From IMG/VR virus record IMGVR_UViG_2740892441_000001: a stretch of DNA of 64,000 nt, one strand, 5' to 3'. Both the position numbers and the translations under genes were made by a program. Positions 33,254-55,563 of this stretch are shown one piece after another. The first letter of the stretch is position 1, and each line of letters opens with the position of its first letter. Source of the stretch: a virus. Lineage: Duplodnaviria > Heunggongvirae > Uroviricota > Caudoviricetes. Under the pieces are notes generated by a model that was not told where the DNA came from, did no database searches, and saw only the letters and a program-made list of their open reading frames with translations.

Positions 33254-34827
33254 TCACTCGTTCTCTTGAGTAGATGAGTCCCCATTCCCTCGGGGTTGAT
33301 CTTGCCCGCTTTCTTGGGCTGCGTCTTGATCATAAGTAAGTACTGACTTATTTTCAAGGGTATTTAGATCATTTTTTGGCGGAAAATTCAAGAGATCTTT
33401 ATCAAATTCCTTCTTCATCGCCTCAGTGATGTTCGGGAAAATCTTCTCAATCAGCATTTCCATCTGGTGACGACGTACAGAGTCCGGTGCCTGAAGTAAC
33501 GACAGTTTCTCGGCAACAGAAAATTCATCAGTAAGGCCACGAATATCGAAACTTTCTGGATACGCAATTAAAGAGTGGTCTTCGTCCAGATCTACCCCCA
33601 TCCATTTCGCAACCAGTAGCATGATTTGGCGTTCAGCCTTTCCAGACGCTCTGCTTTTGTGACAAGCAAGCTATTTACACGCTGGAAGTCATACATTTTT
33701 GCGGCACCAGATGAGTTATCGATTCCCTGTGCGTTGTCCTGCTTCGTTCGCTCACCAGCTACACCAACTGAATGGTAGATTTCGTTAATCACCGTCTTAA
33801 TCGTAGTGATGATCATCTGAGCTTGTTTCGGGTCTGGTGACAGATAAAACGGCTGGTTTCCACCTTCAGAATCGTAGGTGAAGACTCGCTTTGTGCCCAT
33901 TTCAAGCACTTTAGTGTGGTTTTCATCACCAGGTAAAAGCGACTGTACCGGTATAGCCAACTGGCTAAATGTCTGATCCTGAATAATGGCATCAAGGTTT
34001 GACAGATAGTTTGCAACCGCACGATCAAGATAAGCGATATCATCGATCAACGATGGGCTGAAATACGGTGATTCACTTTCTCCAATACAATCAACAGGAA
34101 ACACAGGAACTACGCCGAGATTATGCTCACCGCTATCCTCTAAAATAACTTTTGCCTGACGGCGACCTGCTCCACCAGCGCCCTTCTTCACTTCCTCACG
34201 GAACAGATACCACTCGTTTTGTGTCCACAGACGATAACGTTGGTATTCCTGACCTGTAGAAGTAAAAGGATCTGCGTCATCACGAGCGACTTCCACAATT
34301 AACGCCCACAACATATTCCCGTCGTCGTCCCATGCCACATCCAGCATTTGCTGAGGTGAAATCCAGTAGGCGTAGGCGCGAGCATCTTTCTTTTTCTCGT
34401 CAGCTACTGACTCAACATCACCACTCATCGTGCTATCGACAACAACCCATATGCGACCGTAAATAGACGACTGCAAATCAATAGCGGCCATAAATGAGTC
34501 AATAGAGGCATTCTGGCGGGTCGCACGTTTCCAGAAATTGCGGATCTGCTCTGGTGCCTCTTCGATATTTCTATGAATGTCTTCTTTAAAGAGATATTTG
34601 TTGATGAGGTTTACCACCTCACGAGTGTGGTTGAAGCGATAAGCACGCTCAACTCGCTCCTTAAACTCCTGATCTCCCTCTTTAAAGTAACGAAAGATAT
34701 TGTCTGTAAACCAACCACGCCCGCCAGCGTAAGTGCTGGCGAGGAAGTCCCAATGTTCTTTTTTCTTTTCGTATTCCGGGTGGCGTCGCGCCACCAGATC
34801 CTTAATTTGTTTGTCGTTCAATTCCAT
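33254..34827 (-). pseudogene. portal protein, reading frame interrupted near codon 410
   Basis: ORFs 33592-34827 and 33254-33622 overlap by 31 nt in different frames and read as one protein with an acidic C-terminal tail. Confidence 0.55.
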
Positions 34828-34853: not shown

Positions 34854-36110
34854 CTATCGAGAACCACCAAGAATAACACGGTTTTTGACTGGATACCTAC
34901 GATGTACTGGATAGCCCAATGCGTCTGCACTATGCTCAATGCCACCTGTCTTATCCATATCTCGTGTTCCAGGCTTGTAGATGACCTTTTCCAGTGAATC
35001 AATCAAATGCTTGCACTTCGGATCGATATACAGCCGGATATCTCCAGATGCGGTCATCAGCATTCGGTTAACAGCATTAACACGATCCGCAATTGGCGGG
35101 TGCTTTTTCGAATAATCGACACGTAAGAATCCCTTCTCTTTGAATATGTCTACGTCAGACTCCCCGCGAGCATGTTGGCGATAAGCACCTGCCGGATCTG
35201 GAAATACCGTTATCTGTGATTTCCAGCGCCAGAAGCGCCTCTCAAGCTCATCACAAACCTCTGCCGTGTTAGAGGAAAAGAGCACCAATTCATCAATTGC
35301 CCATAGCTCACCATTTGGCTGAGGTTGCAAAATTACGGAAGACATCGGGTCAATGTTGAAGTCCTGTCCTACCCATATAGGCAACCGAGGGTTGAACTGA
35401 AGCGGTTTAACATGCACGTTTCGATCGAACGGGTAGTAAACGCGCCCGGACATATTTTCAAAGCTGGCCAGGTACTCCTGAGCGAACGATTTAGGGTCCA
35501 TATCGTTCTTAGCAGCTTCAATTTCCGCCGTAGGCACAAACGGCGAATCAGCAGTTACAAACTGCCAGCTCTTCCACTGTCCCTTTCTTTGCAGCTCTAC
35601 GTTCTGGCCTATAGTCCACAGTTTGTGAAATTCCGAGAAGCCTTTTGGCGTACCAATGATCAGTGCACCGCCGCGTGTCGATGAAAGAGTAGGTCGTAAC
35701 ACCTTGTACCAGGTGTCAGCCTTCATATCCTGAAATTCATCAAGCACTACAAAATGCAACGCTACGCCGCGCAGAGTGTCAGGTTTATCAGCACCTTTGA
35801 GGGCGATCTCCGAACCGTTCTTCAACACGATTGTCATCGTGGTGTCGTTCTTTTTCCTAACCCACTTACGGGGCAGAACTTCCTGTAGATCGTCCCACAA
35901 AATCTGGCGAGCCATCTGGTAAGTAGGAGCGACATACCAGACCCTTTGCTTTTTTTCCTTTGCCGCCGCACGAATAATAGTGGAGATCGACAACCGGGAT
36001 TTTCCCCAGCGTCGACCAGCACAAACAACTTTAAATCGATGCGGAGACTGGAAGACTTTCATCTGTCCAGAATGCAGTTGCACAAGACTGAGCGAGGACG
36101 GGATTGCCAT
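34854..36110 (-). CDS. terminase large subunit
   Basis: 418-aa ORF; Walker A VVCAGRRWGKS; C-terminal nuclease-type acidic residues. Confidence 0.8.
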   Translation of the reverse strand: MAIPSSLSLVQLHSGQMKVFQSPHRFKVVCAGRRWGKSRLSISTIIRAAAKEKKQRVWYVAPTYQMARQILWDDLQEVLPRKWVRKKNDTTMTIVLKNGSEIALKGADKPDTLRGVALHFVVLDEFQDMKADTWYKVLRPTLSSTRGGALIIGTPKGFSEFHKLWTIGQNVELQRKGQWKSWQFVTADSPFVPTAEIEAAKNDMDPKSFAQEYLASFENMSGRVYYPFDRNVHVKPLQFNPRLPIWVGQDFNIDPMSSVILQPQPNGELWAIDELVLFSSNTAEVCDELERRFWRWKSQITVFPDPAGAYRQHARGESDVDIFKEKGFLRVDYSKKHPPIADRVNAVNRMLMTASGDIRLYIDPKCKHLIDSLEKVIYKPGTRDMDKTGGIEHSADALGYPVHRRYPVKNRVILGGSR

Positions 36111-36742
36111 TATTCGTCCTCCCCTTCACTTCCATCATCTGTCGCATCAAATTCGCTTAGAGCTTCTTCTTCCAACGTCTCAAGCAATTCGTCATCGATG
36201 ATTTCAGGCTCGTCGTCTTCCTGACGTAATTTCGCCACCTGGGAAGGCGTAAGCTCACCAAATACCAGGTTCGGAATTTCTTCCTCGTCATTTTCCGCAT
36301 GATCCATGCCCAATGCTTTGGACGAAACTTCAAAGCATTTTGCAAGGGTATTACTGGCTCTCTGTAAGCTCTTGAGAGAACCCTCAATCGCCCCTAAAGG
36401 CTTACCCTCACGTTTGGCCGTAGTGACTTCGACCATCACCATCTGCCCCAACGCATACGCCCAGCCGTCATAACGTGTACGACGTTCTTCTATCTTTTCC
36501 GCACGGGCTTTAGCGCGAAGCTCTGCGTCAGATTTAAGAGACTCACGAACCATCTTCCCAACAGAGTCCGCGCCTTTCTCTAATCCTCGCTTTTTGAAAT
36601 GTCTGGAGAGTGTTTCACGACGAATGCCGTACTCTTCCTCCAGCTTTGAGAGTGTATATTCGCCTGACGTCCATTTGGCTTCAGCTTCGGCCCACTCCGC
36701 TGGTGTCAGGCGAGTTTTTACCTCGTCTTTTTCGACAGTCAT
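36110..36742 (-). CDS. terminase small subunit candidate
   Basis: 210-aa ORF immediately upstream of and overlapping terminase large subunit; acidic C-terminal tail. Confidence 0.5.
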   Translation of the reverse strand: MTVEKDEVKTRLTPAEWAEAEAKWTSGEYTLSKLEEEYGIRRETLSRHFKKRGLEKGADSVGKMVRESLKSDAELRAKARAEKIEERRTRYDGWAYALGQMVMVEVTTAKREGKPLGAIEGSLKSLQRASNTLAKCFEVSSKALGMDHAENDEEEIPNLVFGELTPSQVAKLRQEDDEPEIIDDELLETLEEEALSEFDATDDGSEGEDE

Positions 36743-36782
36743 AGATCCCTCTAAAACACACAGAGCGCGTCCATGCGCTCTA

Positions 36783-36836: not shown

Positions 36837-36936
36837 AGGTCTGGGCATGTCTTACTAAGCCTGCTTCCGTATATATTTAATAAGTTACTTATTATTTATA
36901 TATACGGAAGCAGGTCTTTAAATAACGTCCCAGACC
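36836..36936. repeat. ~100-bp nested palindrome upstream of terminase small subunit (candidate cos/pac or late operator)
   Basis: Arms ggtctggg / cccagacc and cctgcttccgtatata / tatatacggaagcagg around an AT-rich core taagttactta. Confidence 0.5.
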
Positions 36937-37214: not shown

Positions 37215-38105
37215 TTATGCCGGTAAAGCAATTTCTAACGGTTTATCCAAAGGTTGTTTGTCGAATGCCAGCAGTGGCAGCGTGTCAGGCAGTCGACGAC
37301 CAAAGTCAGGGTTTCGATACACACCATACAACGGAGACGTAAAGCTCAGGTTGTGAATGTCCTTGAGCAGCTTCACAATGCTGGCCTCGTCCACCAGACT
37401 GTCGGCAATGTCCTGAATCGTCGTGCCACGATTCCGCCCAGCTTTTGCCAGGGAACTGTTCTTGTGGTAGTCCGCCACCAGATCACGCAGTGCACGGCGA
37501 CGACGTGACTCGCTCATTGCGAACAACTCTTTGACGATCGCCTCGTTATCACCCGGGTCGGAGCGGAAATGGCGCTGGAACACACGCAGTGCACTTTCAT
37601 AGCTCTTCGGTCGCTCAGGGCGGATGAACTTGAACCCTGCTTTCATGGCGAAGGGATTGTATTTGCTCATCGAGGATTGGATCTCAATGATTGGCCGGTC
37701 ATGCATCCTGCTAACCAGGTTAATCATTCGATAAGAGACGCCTACGCCACGGTACTGAGTATCCACAACTGAGCGGCTGATCACCGCAAAGTTGTTATTC
37801 ACGTACCGGCCCCAGTACTGGTTAGCCACGGTGGTATTGGTGGTTGGTTTCAACTTAGGAAACATGCGATGGCGAGGTGCCAGCAGAAGTTTCGGGTAAG
37901 CCATAACCACGACGCCCACCAGACGGTCATCCAGTTCGCAGCGATAGTATGTTGGCGCGAAAGGTTTGCCGTCTGTTTTGTAGTGAAGCGACTTAAGAGC
38001 GTGCCAGTCCTCTACAGTTCCCTTTGTGACAGTCATTCGCTCCAGAAAGTCCAGATGACGCGGAAACTCTTCAGGGCGGTAGCGTTTAATGATGATGTCC
38101 GTCAT
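37215..38105 (-). CDS. GNAT-fold protein with C-terminal extension
   Basis: 296-aa ORF; GNAT-like motif VDTQYRGVGVSYRMI. Confidence 0.4.
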   Translation of the reverse strand: MTDIIIKRYRPEEFPRHLDFLERMTVTKGTVEDWHALKSLHYKTDGKPFAPTYYRCELDDRLVGVVVMAYPKLLLAPRHRMFPKLKPTTNTTVANQYWGRYVNNNFAVISRSVVDTQYRGVGVSYRMINLVSRMHDRPIIEIQSSMSKYNPFAMKAGFKFIRPERPKSYESALRVFQRHFRSDPGDNEAIVKELFAMSESRRRRALRDLVADYHKNSSLAKAGRNRGTTIQDIADSLVDEASIVKLLKDIHNLSFTSPLYGVYRNPDFGRRLPDTLPLLAFDKQPLDKPLEIALPA

Positions 38106-38767
38106 GAATGGACCTCATCATAACTACCATTGTGATATTCCACCTTCACGCGTTCTTTGTAGTGCTTGGTGATCTGCATATCCGGGCGCAGCGCGTTCTT
38201 CAGGTCTTCGTGAGTCGTCGCCACCATTACCGTCGCACCAACCTTTCGAGCGGCACGCTGGAGGTTAGATGCCACAACCTGAGCGGTTACACGGTCTAGA
38301 ACAGCACCGAACTCGTCAGCAGCCCACACTTTAGCGCCTGACTCAATCAGTTTGGCAATCTTGAGACGATATTTCTGACCGTCTGACATTTCAGAAGGCT
38401 TGCGAACAAACAGATATGCATCGTTCAGACCTGCCATAGATAACAACCCAAGCGCATCACTGGTAGTTTTGCCCAGTTGGTCAATGACGTTAACCTCATT
38501 ATCGAAGGTAAAGTCATCAATAGAAGCTACAGAAAGCCCTTCATCCTTCATCTGGCGTTGCAACTCGCGCAACACAACGGATTTACCTGAACCGGATTGG
38601 CCGGTGATGTACACCACATCGCCCTGCTTCACTTCCAGCTCCAGATTGTCGTAAAGCGTCCACTCTTTTTCGTCCAGGCCAAGCCCGAACGACTCAGCGA
38701 TTTCCAACGTGCGCGTGGTTTTATTTACGCGTGTCTGAAACGATACGTTGATGATGTATTTGCTCAT
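38102..38767 (-). CDS. ABC-type ATPase
   Basis: 221-aa ORF; Walker A GQSGSGKS, signature-like SDGQKYR, Walker B VWAADEF, H-loop TTHE. Confidence 0.6.
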   Translation of the reverse strand: MSKYIINVSFQTRVNKTTRTLEIAESFGLGLDEKEWTLYDNLELEVKQGDVVYITGQSGSGKSVVLRELQRQMKDEGLSVASIDDFTFDNEVNVIDQLGKTTSDALGLLSMAGLNDAYLFVRKPSEMSDGQKYRLKIAKLIESGAKVWAADEFGAVLDRVTAQVVASNLQRAARKVGATVMVATTHEDLKNALRPDMQITKHYKERVKVEYHNGSYDEVHS

Positions 38768-39465
38768 GCAGCCATCTCCCCGGAAGAGATCTTCTCCGCA
38801 TATGCCACAAATGCGTCTACCCCGCTTTCTCCCGTCATTTCTTCCATGTGGGCAAGCAAATCACCAACAACAATGGCAGAGCCAGCAGGGAGCGTTTTAA
38901 AGCCCAATACGTCGATAACACGTACTTCTTCCGCTGCAACTTCACGACTGATCTCGGTGTGTTCATCCTTCTGTCGTTTAGTTTCTTCGCCCAGATCGAT
39001 AACTAGCGAGTCGGTGTCCATTTCTTCTGTCATGCTGCCAACGAGAACATTCAACTCCCGCTCTTCAAAGCCGAAAACCTCGATATCGTCCAGAACAAGC
39101 GACTCAAGTTCTTTCTGTAGCTTAATTGCATCGTAATCAATGCTGGCAAGTCGGTTATCTTCAAGGCGCTTCGCACGAACCTCGTCATCACTGAGATCAT
39201 CGCGAACAATAACCGGTACGCGCTCAAGTCCAGCAAAAATTGCAGCCTCACGGCGGCCGTGGCCAGTAATAATTACGTCGTTCTTATCGACCGTAATTGG
39301 CTGGTCAAATCCGCGCTTTTTAATGGCTGCGGCCAGATCTCGGATCTGCTGTTCATCATGCTTTTTGGCATTCATCTCATAGGGAATAAGATCTGCCGGG
39401 TCGCGATATACGATTTCAAACTTTTTGGTCATTACATACACTCCTTGTAGTAGTCGACCAGCCAC
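38764..39465 (-). CDS. ParB/Srx-fold domain protein
   Basis: 233-aa ORF; ITGHGRREAA motif typical of ParB N-terminal domain. Confidence 0.5.
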   Translation of the reverse strand: MAGRLLQGVYVMTKKFEIVYRDPADLIPYEMNAKKHDEQQIRDLAAAIKKRGFDQPITVDKNDVIITGHGRREAAIFAGLERVPVIVRDDLSDDEVRAKRLEDNRLASIDYDAIKLQKELESLVLDDIEVFGFEERELNVLVGSMTEEMDTDSLVIDLGEETKRQKDEHTEISREVAAEEVRVIDVLGFKTLPAGSAIVVGDLLAHMEEMTGESGVDAFVAYAEKISSGEMAA

Positions 39466-40112
39466 ACCAGAGCCTCACCAGCGTTCTCCATTTCATTACC
39501 GGTGTTAATAGCCTGCTCTTTGATGATGTTTTTTATGGTTTCTGCAACACGATCTGACGCATCGAAAGTTACTTTGAAGCGCATGGTCTGATGTTCCGCA
39601 CCCACACGTTCGGTTTTCTCTCGTTTGTCGGTATCGACAGGCTCATCACTACCACGAGACAACGCCTCCAGTGCTTCAAGGTCGATTGCCGCCTCTTTTG
39701 CTAAAACCATCGAGATTTCGTCGTCATACGGGGCGATTTCAGACAGTTGATAGTCAAGTTCTGACTGAATTTCTTCAATGAAGCGTTGCAATGCGATTTG
39801 GTCGTCTTCACCGTATCGCTCGTTGTCCACTAGTGACATCTGTTTAGCTACGACATCGCTAATTTTGCCCACAGAAAGCACCGGAACCGTTGAAATTCCT
39901 TGCTCAATAGCAGCACGCCAGCGATGTTCGCCGCCGAGGATTTCAAAAAATCCATCTTCAAGTTCACGAGCCAAAATTGGCTTAAAAAAGCCCAATTTTT
40001 CGATAGAACCTTTCAGTTTTTCAAAATTCTGCGCACCAACCGAATTGGTGTTCCAGGTATTCGGGCGAAGGTTGGCAACATCAACCTGCAAAATCGTGAT
40101 TTTTACATCCAT
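39432..40112 (-). CDS. ParB/Srx-fold domain protein
   Basis: 226-aa ORF; ILGGEHRWRAA motif. Confidence 0.5.
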   Translation of the reverse strand: MDVKITILQVDVANLRPNTWNTNSVGAQNFEKLKGSIEKLGFFKPILARELEDGFFEILGGEHRWRAAIEQGISTVPVLSVGKISDVVAKQMSLVDNERYGEDDQIALQRFIEEIQSELDYQLSEIAPYDDEISMVLAKEAAIDLEALEALSRGSDEPVDTDKREKTERVGAEHQTMRFKVTFDASDRVAETIKNIIKEQAINTGNEMENAGEALVWLVDYYKECM

Positions 40113-40194
40113 TTTATTGCTACAATCAACTAAGTAATTACTTACTTATTATAATAGCCAAATAACATACAAAAGGCACTAAGGAAAGAGGTTT

Positions 40195-41754
40195 ATGACT
40201 GTTCGGATTGTATCTAACGCAGTAAATGCGCTTATTTCTGGCGCAGATGACAAGGTAAAGCAACTGGTGCAACAGATGTTGAGCTACGAAGTCGAGACTG
40301 GCGACTGGAAAGGCACAAGCACGATGTTCAACTGGAGTAAAAACTCGTTCCCTGCTGGCTTTGCCAAGCCTGTAGCGGCGAACTTGAACAAGGCGGGCAT
40401 CAAATGTGTTCATATCCGCAAAGACAAAGCCCCGGCGCTTGGAAAGCCAAATCCGGCGGTTAACCCATTCCCATACAATCCTGATTATGCGTATCAGGAT
40501 CAGACTGTGGAAACGCTAGTTCGCGAGGGAATGATGATTGCGCAGATCGCTACTGGTGGCGGAAAATCTAATGTTGCCTGCAAAGCAGCTGCACGTATCG
40601 GTCGAATGACATTATTTTTAACAACCCGCTCTGTTCTGATGTTTCAGATGGCCGAAAACTTCCAGAGATCCATCGACTACCGCGCCGAAAATGGCGAACC
40701 GTGGTTAAAAGACCAAAAGGTTGGAGTAATTGGCTCGGGTGAGTTCCAGGTATCGCGACATATCAACGTTGCTACAGTTCAAACTCTTGCAAGTTTCCTC
40801 GAAGAACCACCACGCGATGCAACACCAGATAAGAAAAGCTACCACCTCAAACGTCGGGAGTTGGTGAAACGCTTCCTTTCAAGTGTCTCTCTTCTTATTC
40901 TGGAAGAGGCGCATGAGTCTTCAGGCTCTAATTTCTATGACATTGCCAGATTATGTGCGAACGCAGACTATCGCCTGGCGCTTACGGCAACGCCGTTCAT
41001 GAAGGATTCTACGGAAGCCAACATGCGTCTGATGGCTGTGGCCGGGCGAATTGAAATAAAAGTCACGGAAAAGTACCTGATTGATAAAGGCATTCTGGCA
41101 AAGCCATACTTCCTTTATCATAAAGTTGCCTACAAACCGGACGAGGTCAGAATCAAGGCAGAACTTGCTAACAAACACCTCAATTTTAGAGTAGGTATGA
41201 GCACTGCCTACCAAAAGGCTTATCAGTTGGGGATCGTGTATAATTTGGGACGTAACGAGGCCATTGTGCGCGAAGCATTGCTCTATAAGCAACACTCTCT
41301 CAACTGCATGACTCTGGTTCGTCTTAAACGCCACGGGCAAATCCTGATGGAGATGATGAAGGAGTCCGGTCTTAGAGTTGACTTCATCTATGGGGAATCG
41401 AACCAGGCGACAAGGCAAGCAAAGCTGAACAGTTTAGCGTCTGGTGAAATAGATGTTTTAATAGGCTCGACTATTCTGGATGTCGGTGTTGATGTGCCAA
41501 GCGTTGGTGCGGTCATTCTTGCTGGTGGCGGGAAAGCAGAAGTTGAAATGAGACAACGTGTCGGTCGTGGCTTACGAGCCAAGAAGAATCAGGCAAACGT
41601 GTGTTTTATCACTGATTTCATTGACATTAGCAACAAATACCTGTTGTCTCACTCTTATGAGCGAAAACACATCATCGACACTACACCTGGCTTTGCAGAA
41701 GGTGTATTGCCTATTGATGGCGCATTCGATTTTGGAGTTCTGAAACGAGATTAG
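40195..41754 (+). CDS. superfamily 2 helicase (DEAH-type)
   Basis: 519-aa ORF; motif I ATGGGKSN, motif II LEEAHE, motif III LTATP, motif VI QRVGRGLR. Confidence 0.7.
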   Translation: MTVRIVSNAVNALISGADDKVKQLVQQMLSYEVETGDWKGTSTMFNWSKNSFPAGFAKPVAANLNKAGIKCVHIRKDKAPALGKPNPAVNPFPYNPDYAYQDQTVETLVREGMMIAQIATGGGKSNVACKAAARIGRMTLFLTTRSVLMFQMAENFQRSIDYRAENGEPWLKDQKVGVIGSGEFQVSRHINVATVQTLASFLEEPPRDATPDKKSYHLKRRELVKRFLSSVSLLILEEAHESSGSNFYDIARLCANADYRLALTATPFMKDSTEANMRLMAVAGRIEIKVTEKYLIDKGILAKPYFLYHKVAYKPDEVRIKAELANKHLNFRVGMSTAYQKAYQLGIVYNLGRNEAIVREALLYKQHSLNCMTLVRLKRHGQILMEMMKESGLRVDFIYGESNQATRQAKLNSLASGEIDVLIGSTILDVGVDVPSVGAVILAGGGKAEVEMRQRVGRGLRAKKNQANVCFITDFIDISNKYLLSHSYERKHIIDTTPGFAEGVLPIDGAFDFGVLKRD

Positions 41755-52271: not shown

Positions 52272-54305
52272 TTACTTAACCTGGTGGCCAGGTTTAGCAC
52301 CAGCATCCGGGCTTAACAGGAAGATGTCTTTCCCGCCGGGGCCAGCAGCCATCACCATGCCTTCGGAGATACCGAAACGCATTTTACGCGGAGCCAGGTT
52401 AGCCACCATAATGGTGTGACGGCCAATCAGTGCCTGTGGGTCTGGATAAGCGGAACGGATGCCTGAGAAGACATTGCGTTTTTCACCGCCGAGATCCAGC
52501 GTCAGGCGCAGCAGTTTGTCAGAACCTTCAACAAAGTCTGCGTTTTCGATCAGCGCCACGCGCAGGTCAACTTTGGCAAAGTCGTCAAAGGTGATGGTTT
52601 CCTGAATCGGGTCGTCTGCCAGCGGGCCAGTAACTGGCGCGGCAGTAGCTTTCACTTCTTCTTTAGACGCTTCCACCAATGCTTCCACCTGTTTCATGTC
52701 GATACGGTTATACAGTGCTTTGAACGGATTCACTTTATGGCCCAGCAGCGGTTGCTGGATACCATCCCAGGTCAGTTCTGTATTCAGGAATGCTTCTGCA
52801 CGTTCAGTCAGTTTCGGCAGTACCGGCTTCAGGTACGTCATCAGCACGCGGAACAGGTTAATGCCCATAGAGCAAATCGCCTGCAGATCGGCATCGCGTC
52901 CTTCCTGCTTCGCCACCACCCACGGAGCCTGTTCATCGACATAGCGGTTAGCCAGGTCAGCCAATGCCATGATTTCACGGATAGCTTTACCAAATTCGCG
53001 GCTTTCCCATGCTTCGCCAATCACTTCAGCGGCATCAGTAAAGGTTTTGTACAGTTGCGAGTCAGCCAGTTCGCTTGCCAGCACGCCGTCAAAACGCTTG
53101 TTGATAAAGCCTGCATTACGGGAGGCCAGGTTAACCACTTTGTTCACGATATCGGCATTCACGCGCTGAACGAAATCCTCCAGGTTGAGATCGATATCAT
53201 CAATGCGCGAAGAGAGTTTCGCAGTGTAGTAGTAACGCAGGCTGTCGGCGTCAAAATGATTCATCCAGGTGCTGGCTTTAATAAAGGTGCCGCGAGACTT
53301 GGACATCTTCGCGCCGTTCACCGTCACATAGCCGTGAACAAACAGGTTGGTCGGCTTGCGGAAGTTGCTGCCTTCCAGCATGGCAGGCCAGAACAGGCTG
53401 TGGAAGTAAACGATATCTTTACCGATGAAGTGGTACAGCTCGGCGGTGGAGTCTTTCTTCCAGTATTCATCGAAGCTGGTAGTGTCGCCGCGCTTGTCGC
53501 ACAGATTCTTGAAGGAACCCATGTAGCCAATCGGTGCGTCCAGCCAGACGTAGAAATATTTACCCGGCGCGTTCGGAATTTCAAAACCGAAGTAAGGTGC
53601 GTCGCGGGAGATATCCCACTGTTGCAGACCAGATTCAAACCACTCCTGCATTTTGTTTGCCACCTGCTCCTGCAACGCACCGCTGCGGGTCCATGCCTGC
53701 AACATTTCGCTGAAAGAGGGCAGATCAAAGAAGAAGTGTTCAGAATCACGCATTACCGGCGTAGCGCCAGAAACTACCGATTTCGGCTCAATCAGTTCAG
53801 TCGGGCTGTAGGTCGCGCCGCAAACTTCACAGTTATCGCCGTATTGATCTGGCGCTTTACATTTCGGACAGGTGCCTTTCACAAAACGATCCGGCAGGAA
53901 CATGCCTTTTTCCGGGTCGTACAACTGAGAGATAGTGCGGTTTTTAATAAAACCGTTCTCTTTCAGGCGAGTATAGATAAGCTCAGACAGCTGGCGGTTC
54001 TCTTCGCTGTGCGTCGAGTGATAGTTGTCATAGCTGATGTTAAAGCCTGCGAAATCAGTCTGGTGTTCCTGGCTCATTTCGCCAATCATCTGTTCCGGTG
54101 TGATACCAAGCTGCTGTGCTTTCAGCATGATCGGCGTACCGTGGGCATCGTCGGCGCAGATGAAGTTGACCTCGTGGCCGCGCATTCGCTGGTAACGGAC
54201 CCAGACATCAGCCTGGATGTGCTCCAGCATATGGCCGAGGTGGATTGAGCCGTTAGCGTACGGCAGCGCGCACGTCACCAGAATTTTCTTCGCGACTTGG
54301 GTCAT
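52272..54305 (-). CDS. metG: methionine--tRNA ligase
   Basis: 677-aa protein from [25 protein letters not shown] (HLGH, KMSKS motifs, C-terminal tRNA-binding domain); matches E. coli MetG as I recall it; the 43-codon N-terminal extension in the ORF track is rejected. Confidence 0.95.
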
Positions 54306-54462
54306 AGTAGGCATTACTTCTTTGTAGTGAAAAGGGGCTTGATAGTAACAAAATGGCCTTATGTCTGCCATGTGATAACAGCATTTCTCATAAATGATTA
54401 AATGTCGTAGCTGGAGTACACTACAAGGCGACAATTGCGCAAATTAAAATAAAGGAGACGGG

Positions 54463-55563
54463 ATGAGCGAGTCCAAATCGCCGGATGCCCTGAGAGCAAT
54501 GGTAGCCGGTACGCTGGCTAATTTTCAGCACCCAACCCTGAAGCACAACCTGACTACGCTTAAAGCGTTACACCATGTTGCGTTGATGGATGACACACTG
54601 CATGTCGAACTAATCATGCCTTTCGTGTGGAATAAGCCTTTTGAAGACCTGAAAGAGCAATGTAGTGGTGATCTGCTCCGTATCACTGGCGCAAAGGCTA
54701 TCGACTGGAAGCTGTCGTACAACATTGCCACGCTTAAGCGCGTCAAAAACCAACCAGGCATTAATGGCGTTAAGAACATCATCGCCGTCAGCTCAGGCAA
54801 GGGCGGTGTAGGCAAATCGTCCACAGCAGTAAACTTGGCACTGGCGTTGGCTGCTGAAGGTGCGAAAGTTGGTATTTTGGATGCCGATATCTACGGTCCA
54901 TCAATTCCAACCATGCTGGGTGCGGAAAACCAACGTCCAACCTCACCGGACGGTACTCACATGGCACCTATCATGTCTCATGGCCTGGCAACCAACTCTA
55001 TTGGTTATCTGGTCACCGACGACAATGCAATGGTGTGGCGTGGACCGATGGCCAGCAAGGCGTTAATGCAGATGTTGCAGGAAACTCTATGGCCTGATCT
55101 GGACTATCTCGTTCTCGATATGCCGCCGGGCACTGGTGATATTCAATTGACGCTGGCGCAGAACATTCCTGTAACTGGTGCTGTTGTGGTAACTACGCCG
55201 CAAGATATCGCGCTGATCGATGCGAAGAAAGGCATTGTGATGTTCGAAAAAGTCGAAGTGCCGGTACTGGGTATCGTCGAAAACATGAGTGTGCATATTT
55301 GCAGTAACTGCGGTCATCACGAGCCAATTTTTGGCACCGGTGGCGCACAGAAGCTGGCCGAGAAATACAACACGCAGTTGTTAGGCCAAATGCCACTTCA
55401 TATCTCTCTTCGTGAAGATCTGGATAACGGAACACCAACCGTTATTAGTCGTCCAGATAGCGAATTTACGGCTATTTATCGTGACCTCGCAGATCGCGTT
55501 GCTGCCCAAATGTATTGGCAAGGTGAAGTAATACCTGGCGAAATCGCATTCCGCGCAGTGTGA
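54463..55563 (+). CDS. apbC: Fe-S cluster carrier ATPase ApbC/Mrp
   Basis: 366-aa ORF; deviant Walker A SGKGGVGKSS; CxxC motif; divergent from metG as in enterobacterial chromosomes. Confidence 0.95.
   Translation: MSESKSPDALRAMVAGTLANFQHPTLKHNLTTLKALHHVALMDDTLHVELIMPFVWNKPFEDLKEQCSGDLLRITGAKAIDWKLSYNIATLKRVKNQPGINGVKNIIAVSSGKGGVGKSSTAVNLALALAAEGAKVGILDADIYGPSIPTMLGAENQRPTSPDGTHMAPIMSHGLATNSIGYLVTDDNAMVWRGPMASKALMQMLQETLWPDLDYLVLDMPPGTGDIQLTLAQNIPVTGAVVVTTPQDIALIDAKKGIVMFEKVEVPVLGIVENMSVHICSNCGHHEPIFGTGGAQKLAEKYNTQLLGQMPLHISLREDLDNGTPTVISRPDSEFTAIYRDLADRVAAQMYWQGEVIPGEIAFRAV

Follow-up and report, generated by a model that had tools for sequence, protein, structure and literature searches.

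A five-gene operon of the viral record IMGVR_UViG_2740892441_000001 (a stretch of 64,000 nucleotides, referred to here as the window) encodes an ATP-binding cassette (ABC) ATPase and a GNAT-fold protein which are shown, by alignment with fused relatives, to be the N- and C-terminal halves of one predicted COG2401-type enzyme, split over two genes. Two ParB-like proteins and a small winged-helix-turn-helix (wHTH) protein complete the set. It is possible, with a probability that we put at about 45%, that the operon encodes a post-replicative DNA base-acylation system marking phage DNA before packaging; DNA as the target, the acyl donor, the modified base, the protective role and the use of ATP and ParB are all points that we infer. 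DNA comparison places the window among the Escherichia coli phage-plasmids of the SSU5/pHCM2 type: it shares 97-98% identity with Escherichia phages CMS-2020a, PhiR41_1 and Cyrano, and 79-84% with Klebsiella relatives and Salmonella phage SSU5.

Both the enzyme family and the role predicted for it have been described before, and the window holds a split, double-ParB form of this family. For the pairing of a GNAT with an ABC ATPase, Iyer et al. predicted an acyl modification, as yet uncharacterised, on a DNA base, with phage pT24 as an example (Nucleic Acids Research 2013 and Viruses 2021, the former as quoted in PMC7824862). A limited literature search returned no experimental characterisation of the module, and no relevant paper on COG2401, MK0520, ABC-GNAT or N4-acetyl-deoxycytidine in phages. 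An initial annotation of the window, made from the sequence alone, had not recognised the gene combination as a characterised system. This is in keeping with the outcome of the search for experiments, but overlooks that the ABC and GNAT genes form a split member of a named family. DNA modification before packaging, one of the roles which that annotation proposed, agrees with the sole published view, that of Iyer et al., and is the best-supported reading here; its interpretation was largely right.

A split ABC-GNAT enzyme in a conserved operon

The operon occupies 36.9-40.1 kb on the minus strand and consists of five co-oriented genes, whose products all fall in well-populated PHROG families:

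39432..40112, minus strand: ParB-A, 226 amino acids (aa), ParB/Srx (ParB-CTPase fold); PF02195, E 3e-13; phrog_723, E 1e-78
38764..39435, minus strand: ParB-B, 223 aa from the ATG, ParB-CTPase fold; PF02195, E 1.5e-8; phrog_930, E 8e-113
38102..38767, minus strand: ABC ATPase, 221 aa, soluble, nucleotide-binding domain only; PF00005, E 6e-13; phrog_293, E 6e-59
37215..38105, minus strand: predicted GNAT-fold acyltransferase, 296 aa, core at approximately residues 1-160 and a helical C-terminal extension of ~130 residues
36939..37205, minus strand: winged-helix-like protein, fifth gene of the operon, 88 aa; phrog_900, E 2e-45

The first four of these open reading frames (ORFs) had been placed at 37215-40112 in the initial annotation and are indeed present there, on the minus strand. 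All motifs quoted there were found: EILGGEHRWRAA in ParB-A, ITGHGRREAA in ParB-B, and GQSGSGKS, SDGQKYR and VWAADEF in the ABC protein. The translational coupling that had been proposed for the four genes is borne out by the overlaps at the first three junctions (TAATG, ATGA and ATGA), with a Shine-Dalgarno-like sequence ahead of each. The longest ParB-B ORF (38764..39465) begins with GTG; the ATG at 39435, in agreement with the annotation of Cyrano, is the likely start. The 88-aa gene begins 9 nt after the 296-aa gene, in the same orientation, and is followed by 196 bp that separate the operon from the TerS-like gene and hold a palindrome of about 100 bp and a terminator-like hairpin. The operon had been described as lying just upstream of the terminase genes; it is indeed upstream, but the fifth gene and the 196-bp gap had escaped notice.

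The 296-aa protein gave no match in Pfam, NCBIfam, PADLOC or PDB sequence searches, and its GNAT fold was resolved only by structure and profile searches. As modelled, it is a GNAT-fold protein. A segment conserved across 29 homologues (SRxVVDTxYRGxGxSYR, with a motif-A-like RGxGxS) resembles, at the sequence level, the acyl-CoA-binding motif A of GNATs. The C-terminal extension is accounted for neither by sequence search nor by the listed fold matches. The initial domain assignments were correct throughout, including this GNAT fold, which no profile library detects. Across 27 homologues of the ABC ATPase there is no variation in the Walker A motif, the signature SDGQK, the Walker B DE or the H-loop, and identity is 52-63% even in Alphaproteobacteria.

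A profile of the 296-aa family retrieved 864 relatives from a search of 1.8 billion representative proteins. Outside the SSU5-like lineage, many of these relatives are 440-560 aa long, and their GNAT-like part, at ~200-480, matches the profile with E-values of 1e-27 to 1e-14. Every larger fused relative that was scanned carries PF00005 N-terminal of the GNAT-like part, and several show weak Acetyltransf_1/7/10 matches C-terminally. The consensus of the fused relatives agrees motif for motif with the ABC protein of the window. With a profile of the fused family, 2065 of the candidate proteins scored passed E <= 1e-10, many of them from Bathyarchaeia, Nitrososphaerota and Thermoproteota assemblies; the archaeal proteins bear the JGI name "ABC-type ATPase with predicted acetyltransferase domain". 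One fused protein (P0159) aligned in two pieces to both window-type genes of PhiR41_1 and Cyrano (E 1e-60). In the window and 27 other SSU5-like loci the two domains are encoded by separate ORFs and not on one polypeptide. Because thousands of relatives have the domains fused, and in this same order, ABC and GNAT are two halves of one enzyme. In the annotations of Cyrano and ST13-OXA48phi12.3, the 296-aa gene already bears the name of an ABC-type ATPase with a fused, predicted acetyl/acyltransferase domain. From its intact ABC motifs, modelled GNAT fold and motif-A-like RGxGxS, the enzyme looks active. Other architectures in the family (among proteins P0207, P0178, P0163 and P0154) include a LAGLIDADG intein inside the ABC domain and a C-terminal TFIIB repeat. 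A Pfam search, made with no dedicated transmembrane prediction, found no transporter membrane domain among the five operon genes or their neighbours; relatives of the ABC protein are fused to GNAT and not to such a domain.

Conservation was examined in 28 loci, which come from Gamma- and Alphaproteobacteria and lie for the most part on contigs of about 90-150 kb. The features that adjoin the operon in the window are as follows:

36110..36742, minus strand: TerS-like DNA-binding protein; phrog_867, synteny
34854..36110, minus strand: large terminase (TerL); PF03237, PF17289, phrog_2, synteny
40195..41754, plus strand: superfamily 2 (SF2) helicase, UvsW/ResIII-type, divergent from the operon; PF04851, PF00270, PF00271
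36838..36936: palindromic element of ~100 bp with perfect 17-nt arms CCTGCTTCCGTATATAT and an inner palindrome TAAGTTACTTA
36761..36782, minus strand: hairpin resembling an intrinsic terminator, just upstream of the TerS-like start codon (consensus match only)
40113..40194: 82-bp intergenic region that divides ParB-A from the divergent UvsW-like helicase gene, with palindrome TAAGTAATTACTTA at 40131-40144

Gene order proved invariant: the helicase on the opposite strand, then ParB-A, ParB-B, ABC, zero to three small inserts, GNAT, wHTH, TerS-like, TerL and portal. The set proposed in the initial annotation accordingly recurs, in the same order, in all 28 loci. The helicase keeps its position in 27 of them, that is, in every locus reaching far enough, and the operon always precedes the packaging module formed by the TerS-like gene and TerL. 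The same arrangement is found in the Pseudomonas Nickievirus phage hairong. In the deepest comparisons, identities were 52-63% for ABC, 52-64% for TerL, 36-49% for GNAT and 31-48% for ParB-A and ParB-B; the ABC gene is conserved to the same degree as TerL. The operon is a core module and not a variable island. The 88-aa gene directly follows the GNAT gene in most of the loci, overlapping it by 4 nt in some; its product had no Pfam match and only weak matches to Sta1/Lrs14 wHTH proteins (E 0.003).

The inserts between ABC and GNAT comprise a 183-aa protein in Klebsiella phages (L002, 7094-7645), Phage_gp49_66 and RyR-domain proteins in an Ectothiorhodospira element (L003, 6961-7999) and a 119-aa protein in phage hairong (L213, 4458-4817); evidently, the split enzyme tolerates cargo between its halves. 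TerL ORFs of 590-840 aa, versus about 420 aa elsewhere, occur in Xenorhabdus hominickii, Novosphingobium and Chelativorans (L089, 10944-13193; L095, 11024-13540; L103, 10709-13487) and may contain an intein or another insertion. Near ~33639, the portal gene of the window (33254-34827, minus strand) lacks 1 nt that 99%-identical relatives have (GGAAAGGGCTG to GGAAA-GGCTG) and is thereby broken into ORFs of 411 and 122 aa. The deletion is a homopolymer sequencing error, or else an inactivating frameshift that would leave the element defective as a phage. At 52272-55563 lie a full-length metG-like methionyl-tRNA synthetase gene (720-aa ORF) and a divergent Mrp/ApbC-type P-loop NTPase gene, both with GC content above that of the surrounding sequence. 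The chromosomal junction that this pair (52-55.6 kb) might suggest was dismissed, as PhiR41_1 and Cyrano carry both genes within the phage-plasmid.

The ParB-like proteins and neighbouring DNA elements

ParB-A has a canonical-like Box II motif (GGEHRWRAA) and matches Spo0J/ParB/Noc chains in the PDB (E 3e-9); its GG.HR and DN motifs do not vary across 27 homologues. ParB-B carries a Box II variant (GHGR, within GHGRREAA), and PYxxNxKxH, GHGR and DN are invariant in its alignment. The best matches of ParB-B are to the ParB domain of phage ParB-methyltransferase fusions (phrog_498, a ParB-fused DNA methyltransferase, E 5e-32; PADLOC MTase_II PDLC03229, E 3e-17). An AlphaFold2 (AF2) model of ParB-B (pLDDT 84) has a ParB/Noc/KorB-type N-domain followed, after residue 100, by helices that find no match beyond the ParB/Noc N-terminal region; the top Foldseek matches were Noc, ParB and KorB. 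The single ParB partners found beside the enzyme in phages 315.4 and Pmp13 (see below) match ParB-B (E 4e-26 and 7e-20) far better than ParB-A. ParB-B is the counterpart of the single ParB partner in other phages, and ParB-A is an extra ParB particular to the SSU5/Nickievirus-type lineage.

Several database records annotate such genes as ParB or chromosome partitioning protein, and it might be supposed that the two proteins bind the centromere of the phage-plasmid, all the more as each has an N-terminal ParB fold in which the NTP-binding motifs are conserved. This explanation is largely refuted. Pfam searches detected only PF02195 in ParB-A and ParB-B, with no HTH or centromere-binding domain and no C-terminal dimerisation domain of the kind found in partition ParB proteins. 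No cognate ParA adjoins the ParB genes, whose neighbours are the helicase and the ABC ATPase. A ParA-type module is instead found 30 kb away:

7483..8151, minus strand: small ParA/MipZ/VirC1-type ATPase, 222 aa
7124..7483, minus strand: partner of the ParA-type ATPase, 119 aa, no Pfam match
4798..6138: DnaB-like helicase adjoining the module

The 7124-8151 segment is a candidate type-Ib partition module. Furthermore, the ParB-ABC-GNAT module is carried by integrated prophages and by phages whose annotation lists no plasmid functions (315.4, Shatter, LE4, Pmp13, hairong). On these combined grounds a role of the ParB-like proteins in partition was rejected, even though the operon-side palindrome has a second copy, at 7039-7093, just downstream of the ParA-type operon (78% identity over about 130 nt).

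The linear GenBank records of SSU5 and Cyrano begin about 9 nt from the centre of the 36838-36936 palindrome, which could be an operator, a centromere-like site or a packaging site. The 40113..40194 region is the likely promoter/operator region of the operon. Its palindrome belongs to a group of TAAGT-N0-6-ACTTA sequences, six of which occur in the window (at 7062, 27842, 33337, 36881, 40131 and 48427) versus 0.37 expected from shuffled sequences. Several are intergenic and two flank the operon, one of them in the divergent region between the helicase and ParB-A. Their spacings vary (1 to 4 nt), so that a single common operator is not claimed. Terminator-like consensus matches in the region are no more numerous than expected from shuffling.

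These elements would suit a different role, in which the ParB proteins act as KorB-like NTP-gated clamps that regulate, together with the wHTH protein, the late packaging and structural operon, the ABC-GNAT enzyme being a co-regulated passenger. The presence of KorB among the Foldseek matches, the enrichment of TAAGT..ACTTA palindromes, two of which flank the operon, and the location of the operon at the early/late boundary, with a terminator-like hairpin ahead of TerS, are all in line with transcriptional control. Such control nonetheless seems very improbable as the function of the set: translational coupling and the repeated pairing of ParB with ABC-GNAT across phyla favour one machine, and the ABC and GNAT genes are better conserved than the ParB genes.

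The enzyme in unrelated viruses and its possible function

A first scan of viral contigs with the GNAT profile returned almost only near-identical SSU5-like elements, and a scan with the fused protein P0180 found nothing. A tblastn search with a fused member yielded 67 phage records. Gene orders around the ABC-GNAT gene include the following:

Streptococcus pyogenes phage 315.4: ParB_N, ABC(-GNAT), ASCH, DUF5681, TerL, portal
Gordonia phage Shatter: ParB-like (gene 1), ABC-GNAT (gene 2), formyltransferase domain (gene 3), terminase
Leptospira phage LE4: ParB-like, ABC-GNAT, three small genes, TerL
Pasteurella phage Pmp13: ParB-like, ABC-GNAT, TerS, TerL
Rhodococcus/Gordonia phage Jace: ParB-like, ABC-GNAT, aspartate decarboxylase, CoA-transferase III, TerS 2.9 kb further
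Fredinandcohnia prophage: ABC-GNAT, Amidoligase_2, an 88-aa gene, putative TerL, portal

In five unrelated phage lineages (315.4, Shatter, Jace, LE4 and Pmp13) a ParB-fold partner is translationally coupled to ABC-GNAT. In these, the SSU5-like elements and the Fredinandcohnia prophage, the enzyme gene lies about 0.6-3 kb upstream of the terminase genes. The TerL proteins of seven ABC-GNAT lineages share no detectable similarity (that of Jace being outside the comparison), and for this reason the adjacency to terminase has recurred independently. A further 80 IMG/VR loci (L131-L210) encode a fused archaeal-type protein of ~480 aa. There, a conserved block of tail genes ends in TerL, and ABC-GNAT follows as the last gene, directly after TerL in about 50 of the 80; the TerL family is present in 55. 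The gene is often within 1.5 kb of the end of the contig or provirus. Cellular contexts in Nitrososphaerota share the provirus layout, with a staphylococcal-nuclease-domain gene after ABC-GNAT. Altogether, phages with ABC-GNAT come from at least five bacterial phyla, and archaeal-type proviruses have it too. Neither terminase nor ParB lies nearby in Nonlabens phage P12024S, Tenacibaculum phage pT24, Vibrio phage VmeM-32 and a Porphyromonas phage. On one IMG/VR contig, ABC-GNAT is fused to a family-B DNA polymerase (PolB) in a protein of 1260 aa (L112, 8001-11783); the surrounding replication module also encodes a 5'-3' exonuclease, a primase-helicase, RecA and an SbcC-like protein.

A gene for acyl or amine handling repeatedly comes right after ABC-GNAT in other phages. 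These genes encode aspartate decarboxylase and CoA-transferase III in Jace (L129, 5059-6170), a formyltransferase domain in two unrelated phages (Shatter, L125, 1805-2452; the Porphyromonas phage, L211, 4523-4996), Amidoligase_2 in the Fredinandcohnia prophage (L121, 7567-8418) and an ASCH domain in 315.4 (L124, 5981-6358). Such neighbours suggest custom acyl donors or a modification in several steps. Among ASCH proteins, YqfB hydrolyses N4-acetylcytidine (PMC6972931).

The position of the gene invites the explanation that ParB proteins, wHTH and ABC-GNAT are packaging accessories, which mark or remodel pac/cos for TerS and TerL, or acylate terminase, portal or capsid proteins or DNA-condensing polyamines. 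The adjacency to mutually unrelated terminases, the archaeal-type genes next to TerL and the large palindrome between operon and TerS, where the SSU5 and Cyrano records begin, all speak for it. However, those record starts may just reflect a terminase-first convention, the window and Pmp13 have a separate TerS-like gene, and in P12024S, pT24, VmeM-32 and the PolB fusions the gene is far from terminase, alone or in replication modules. Orphan DNA methyltransferases of temperate phages occupy the same pre-terminase position, and for that reason position alone cannot separate packaging from modification ahead of packaging. We hold an accessory role in packaging to be distinctly unlikely.

If the operon encodes a base-acylation system, its parts might work as follows. 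The ABC domains would dimerise around ATP, with binding and hydrolysis serving to engage DNA or present a base, and the GNAT domain would move an acyl group from acyl-CoA to an exocyclic base amine, as does Mom of phage Mu. ParB-B would load on or prime DNA and activate or target the enzyme, by analogy with the ParB-like partners of 5mYOX and with DpdB as partner of DpdA, ParB-A would act as a second clamp peculiar to this lineage, and the 88-aa wHTH protein could be a site-specific or regulatory subunit. Location immediately upstream of the terminase genes would time the modification, or co-localise it, with the packaging of concatemers, and the acyl mark would shield injected DNA from host nucleases. 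The link to DNA is supported by the coupled ParB partners, the match of ParB-B to methyltransferase fusions, the PolB fusions in a replication module and the structural neighbour Mom: among viral proteins, a Mom protein was the best Foldseek neighbour of the GNAT model, with restriction endonuclease-fused proteins next in the list. The acyl- and amine-handling neighbours in other phages, the ParB-dependent modifiers already known (see the comparison below), the earlier prediction by Iyer et al. and the place of the set in the conserved core also speak for base acylation.

Several observations weigh against acylation of DNA. There is no direct evidence for DNA as the substrate, and no modified base is reported for SSU5-like phages in the literature searchable here. 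Proteins or small molecules are the substrates of most characterised GNATs, including those that are the top PDB matches of the model. The similarity to Mom is weak (Foldseek E 2e-4, TM 0.33-0.47), and no Mom profile was matched. The ABC domain is nearer to transporter-type nucleotide-binding domains than to the Rad50, UvrA or MutS classes. ParB is absent from 79 of the 80 archaeal-type viral loci, and none lies beside the ABC-GNAT gene in the Bacteroidota and T4-like phages examined, so that ParB is not obligatory or universal to the family. The recurring terminase link fits a packaging role equally well. Finally, the formyltransferase and ASCH neighbours, the metG gene of the window and a tRNA-Met gene near the hairong module would also fit RNA or aminoacyl-tRNA as the target.

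This last point leads to the alternative of an ATP-dependent acylation of RNA, aminoacyl-tRNA or a host or phage protein, in host takeover or counter-defence, in which the ParB proteins would be only NTP-dependent regulators. TmcA-type enzymes couple an ATPase to a GNAT for tRNA acetylation. Phage GNATs that acetylate host proteins exist, such as Rac of phiKMV-like phages (as cited in PMC7824862), and ParB-fold proteins can be enzymes or scaffolds without a DNA role (PMC12704722). Against such targets, the partner ParB is of the type fused to DNA methyltransferases, and the PolB fusion and the adjoining helicase point to DNA. The metG gene is 14 kb off and, in a search of its region, was seen only in E. 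coli-type relatives, and the set is a deeply conserved core and not a variable accessory island. A target other than DNA is, in our estimation, unlikely.

The base-acylation reading admits a broader version, which we consider doubtful: that a terminase-linked, ATP-dependent DNA acyltransferase is common to bacterial and archaeal tailed viruses and would produce N-acyl base marks unseen in any genome. Donors might be custom-made in some phages (beta-alanyl-CoA from PanD and the CoA-transferase in Jace; formylated or amidoligase-extended groups elsewhere), ParB-CTPase clamps would load DNA, and the form with two ParB proteins and wHTH in SSU5-type elements would target the mark relative to palindromic sites.

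Should the prediction be true, the operon would represent a new chemical type of DNA modification, and a second experimentally grounded case of ParB-fold proteins partnering DNA-modifying enzymes. Modifications of this kind bear on restriction evasion and on the sequencing and cloning of phage DNA, and are a source of enzymes for biotechnology. Phage-plasmids carrying the operon are common in clinical Enterobacteriaceae, some with resistance genes, and as part of the core set of a phage lineage of roughly 100 kb it is tractable in E. coli K-12 (PhiR41_1, Cyrano, SSU5). Should the target be something other than DNA, there would still be an unexplained regularity in how phage genomes are organised, namely the repeated and independent placement of the module next to unrelated terminases.

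Comparison with known systems

The nearest relatives are the COG2401 ABC-ATPase/GNAT proteins (MK0520-like), which have the same two domains in the same order, with homology over both halves, and in which the ABC motifs and GNAT motif A are likewise kept. The window enzyme differs in being split into two overlapping genes and in the helical extension of ~130 residues on its GNAT half, and its operon adds two ParB-like proteins and a wHTH protein; the activity of the family is predicted only.

Canonical ParB, Noc and KorB proteins of ParABS-type systems share with ParB-A and ParB-B the N-terminal CTPase fold with its Box II and Box III residues, the GxxRxxA motif being represented by GGEHRWRAA in ParB-A and by the variant GHGRREAA in ParB-B; they differ in that the window proteins have no detected HTH and no adjacent ParA, and that their module occurs in non-plasmid phages. 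A closer parallel in arrangement is offered by ParB-dependent modifiers. Phage ParB-like proteins that have no obvious DNA-binding domain serve as activators of cognate 5mYOX thymine dioxygenases (PMC13229309), the ParB-like ATPase DpdB works with DpdA (PMC12839542), and in phages the ParB-CTPase fold is fused to methyltransferases, while one ParB-acetyltransferase fusion binds GTP (PMC12704722). As in 5mYOX clade E-ParB, DpdA-DpdB and ParB-methyltransferase systems, a short ParB-fold protein without an obvious DNA-binding domain lies co-oriented beside a known or putative modifying enzyme; adjacent, co-oriented genes for a ParB and a putative modifying enzyme are found in the window, 315.4, Shatter, LE4, Pmp13 and Jace. 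The window differs from these systems in that the partner is a predicted ABC-GNAT acyltransferase and not a dioxygenase, transglycosylase or methylase, and in having two distinct ParB proteins. A link to nicked-DNA phages was dropped, since PMC11780129 concerns tf-like phages and not the ParB-ABC-GNAT module.

Mom of phage Mu, a GNAT-fold DNA adenine methylcarbamoylase, needs no ATPase or ParB partner; no sequence-level membership in its family was seen for the window GNAT, whose structural similarity to Mom is only marginally above that to generic GNATs. In TmcA/NAT10, an NTPase coupled to a GNAT acetylates a nucleic-acid base, which is the logic proposed for ABC-GNAT; the GNAT of the window is not fused to a helicase-type ATPase of that kind (TmcA_N/DUF699-like), and its predicted ATPase partner is the ABC protein encoded by the preceding gene.

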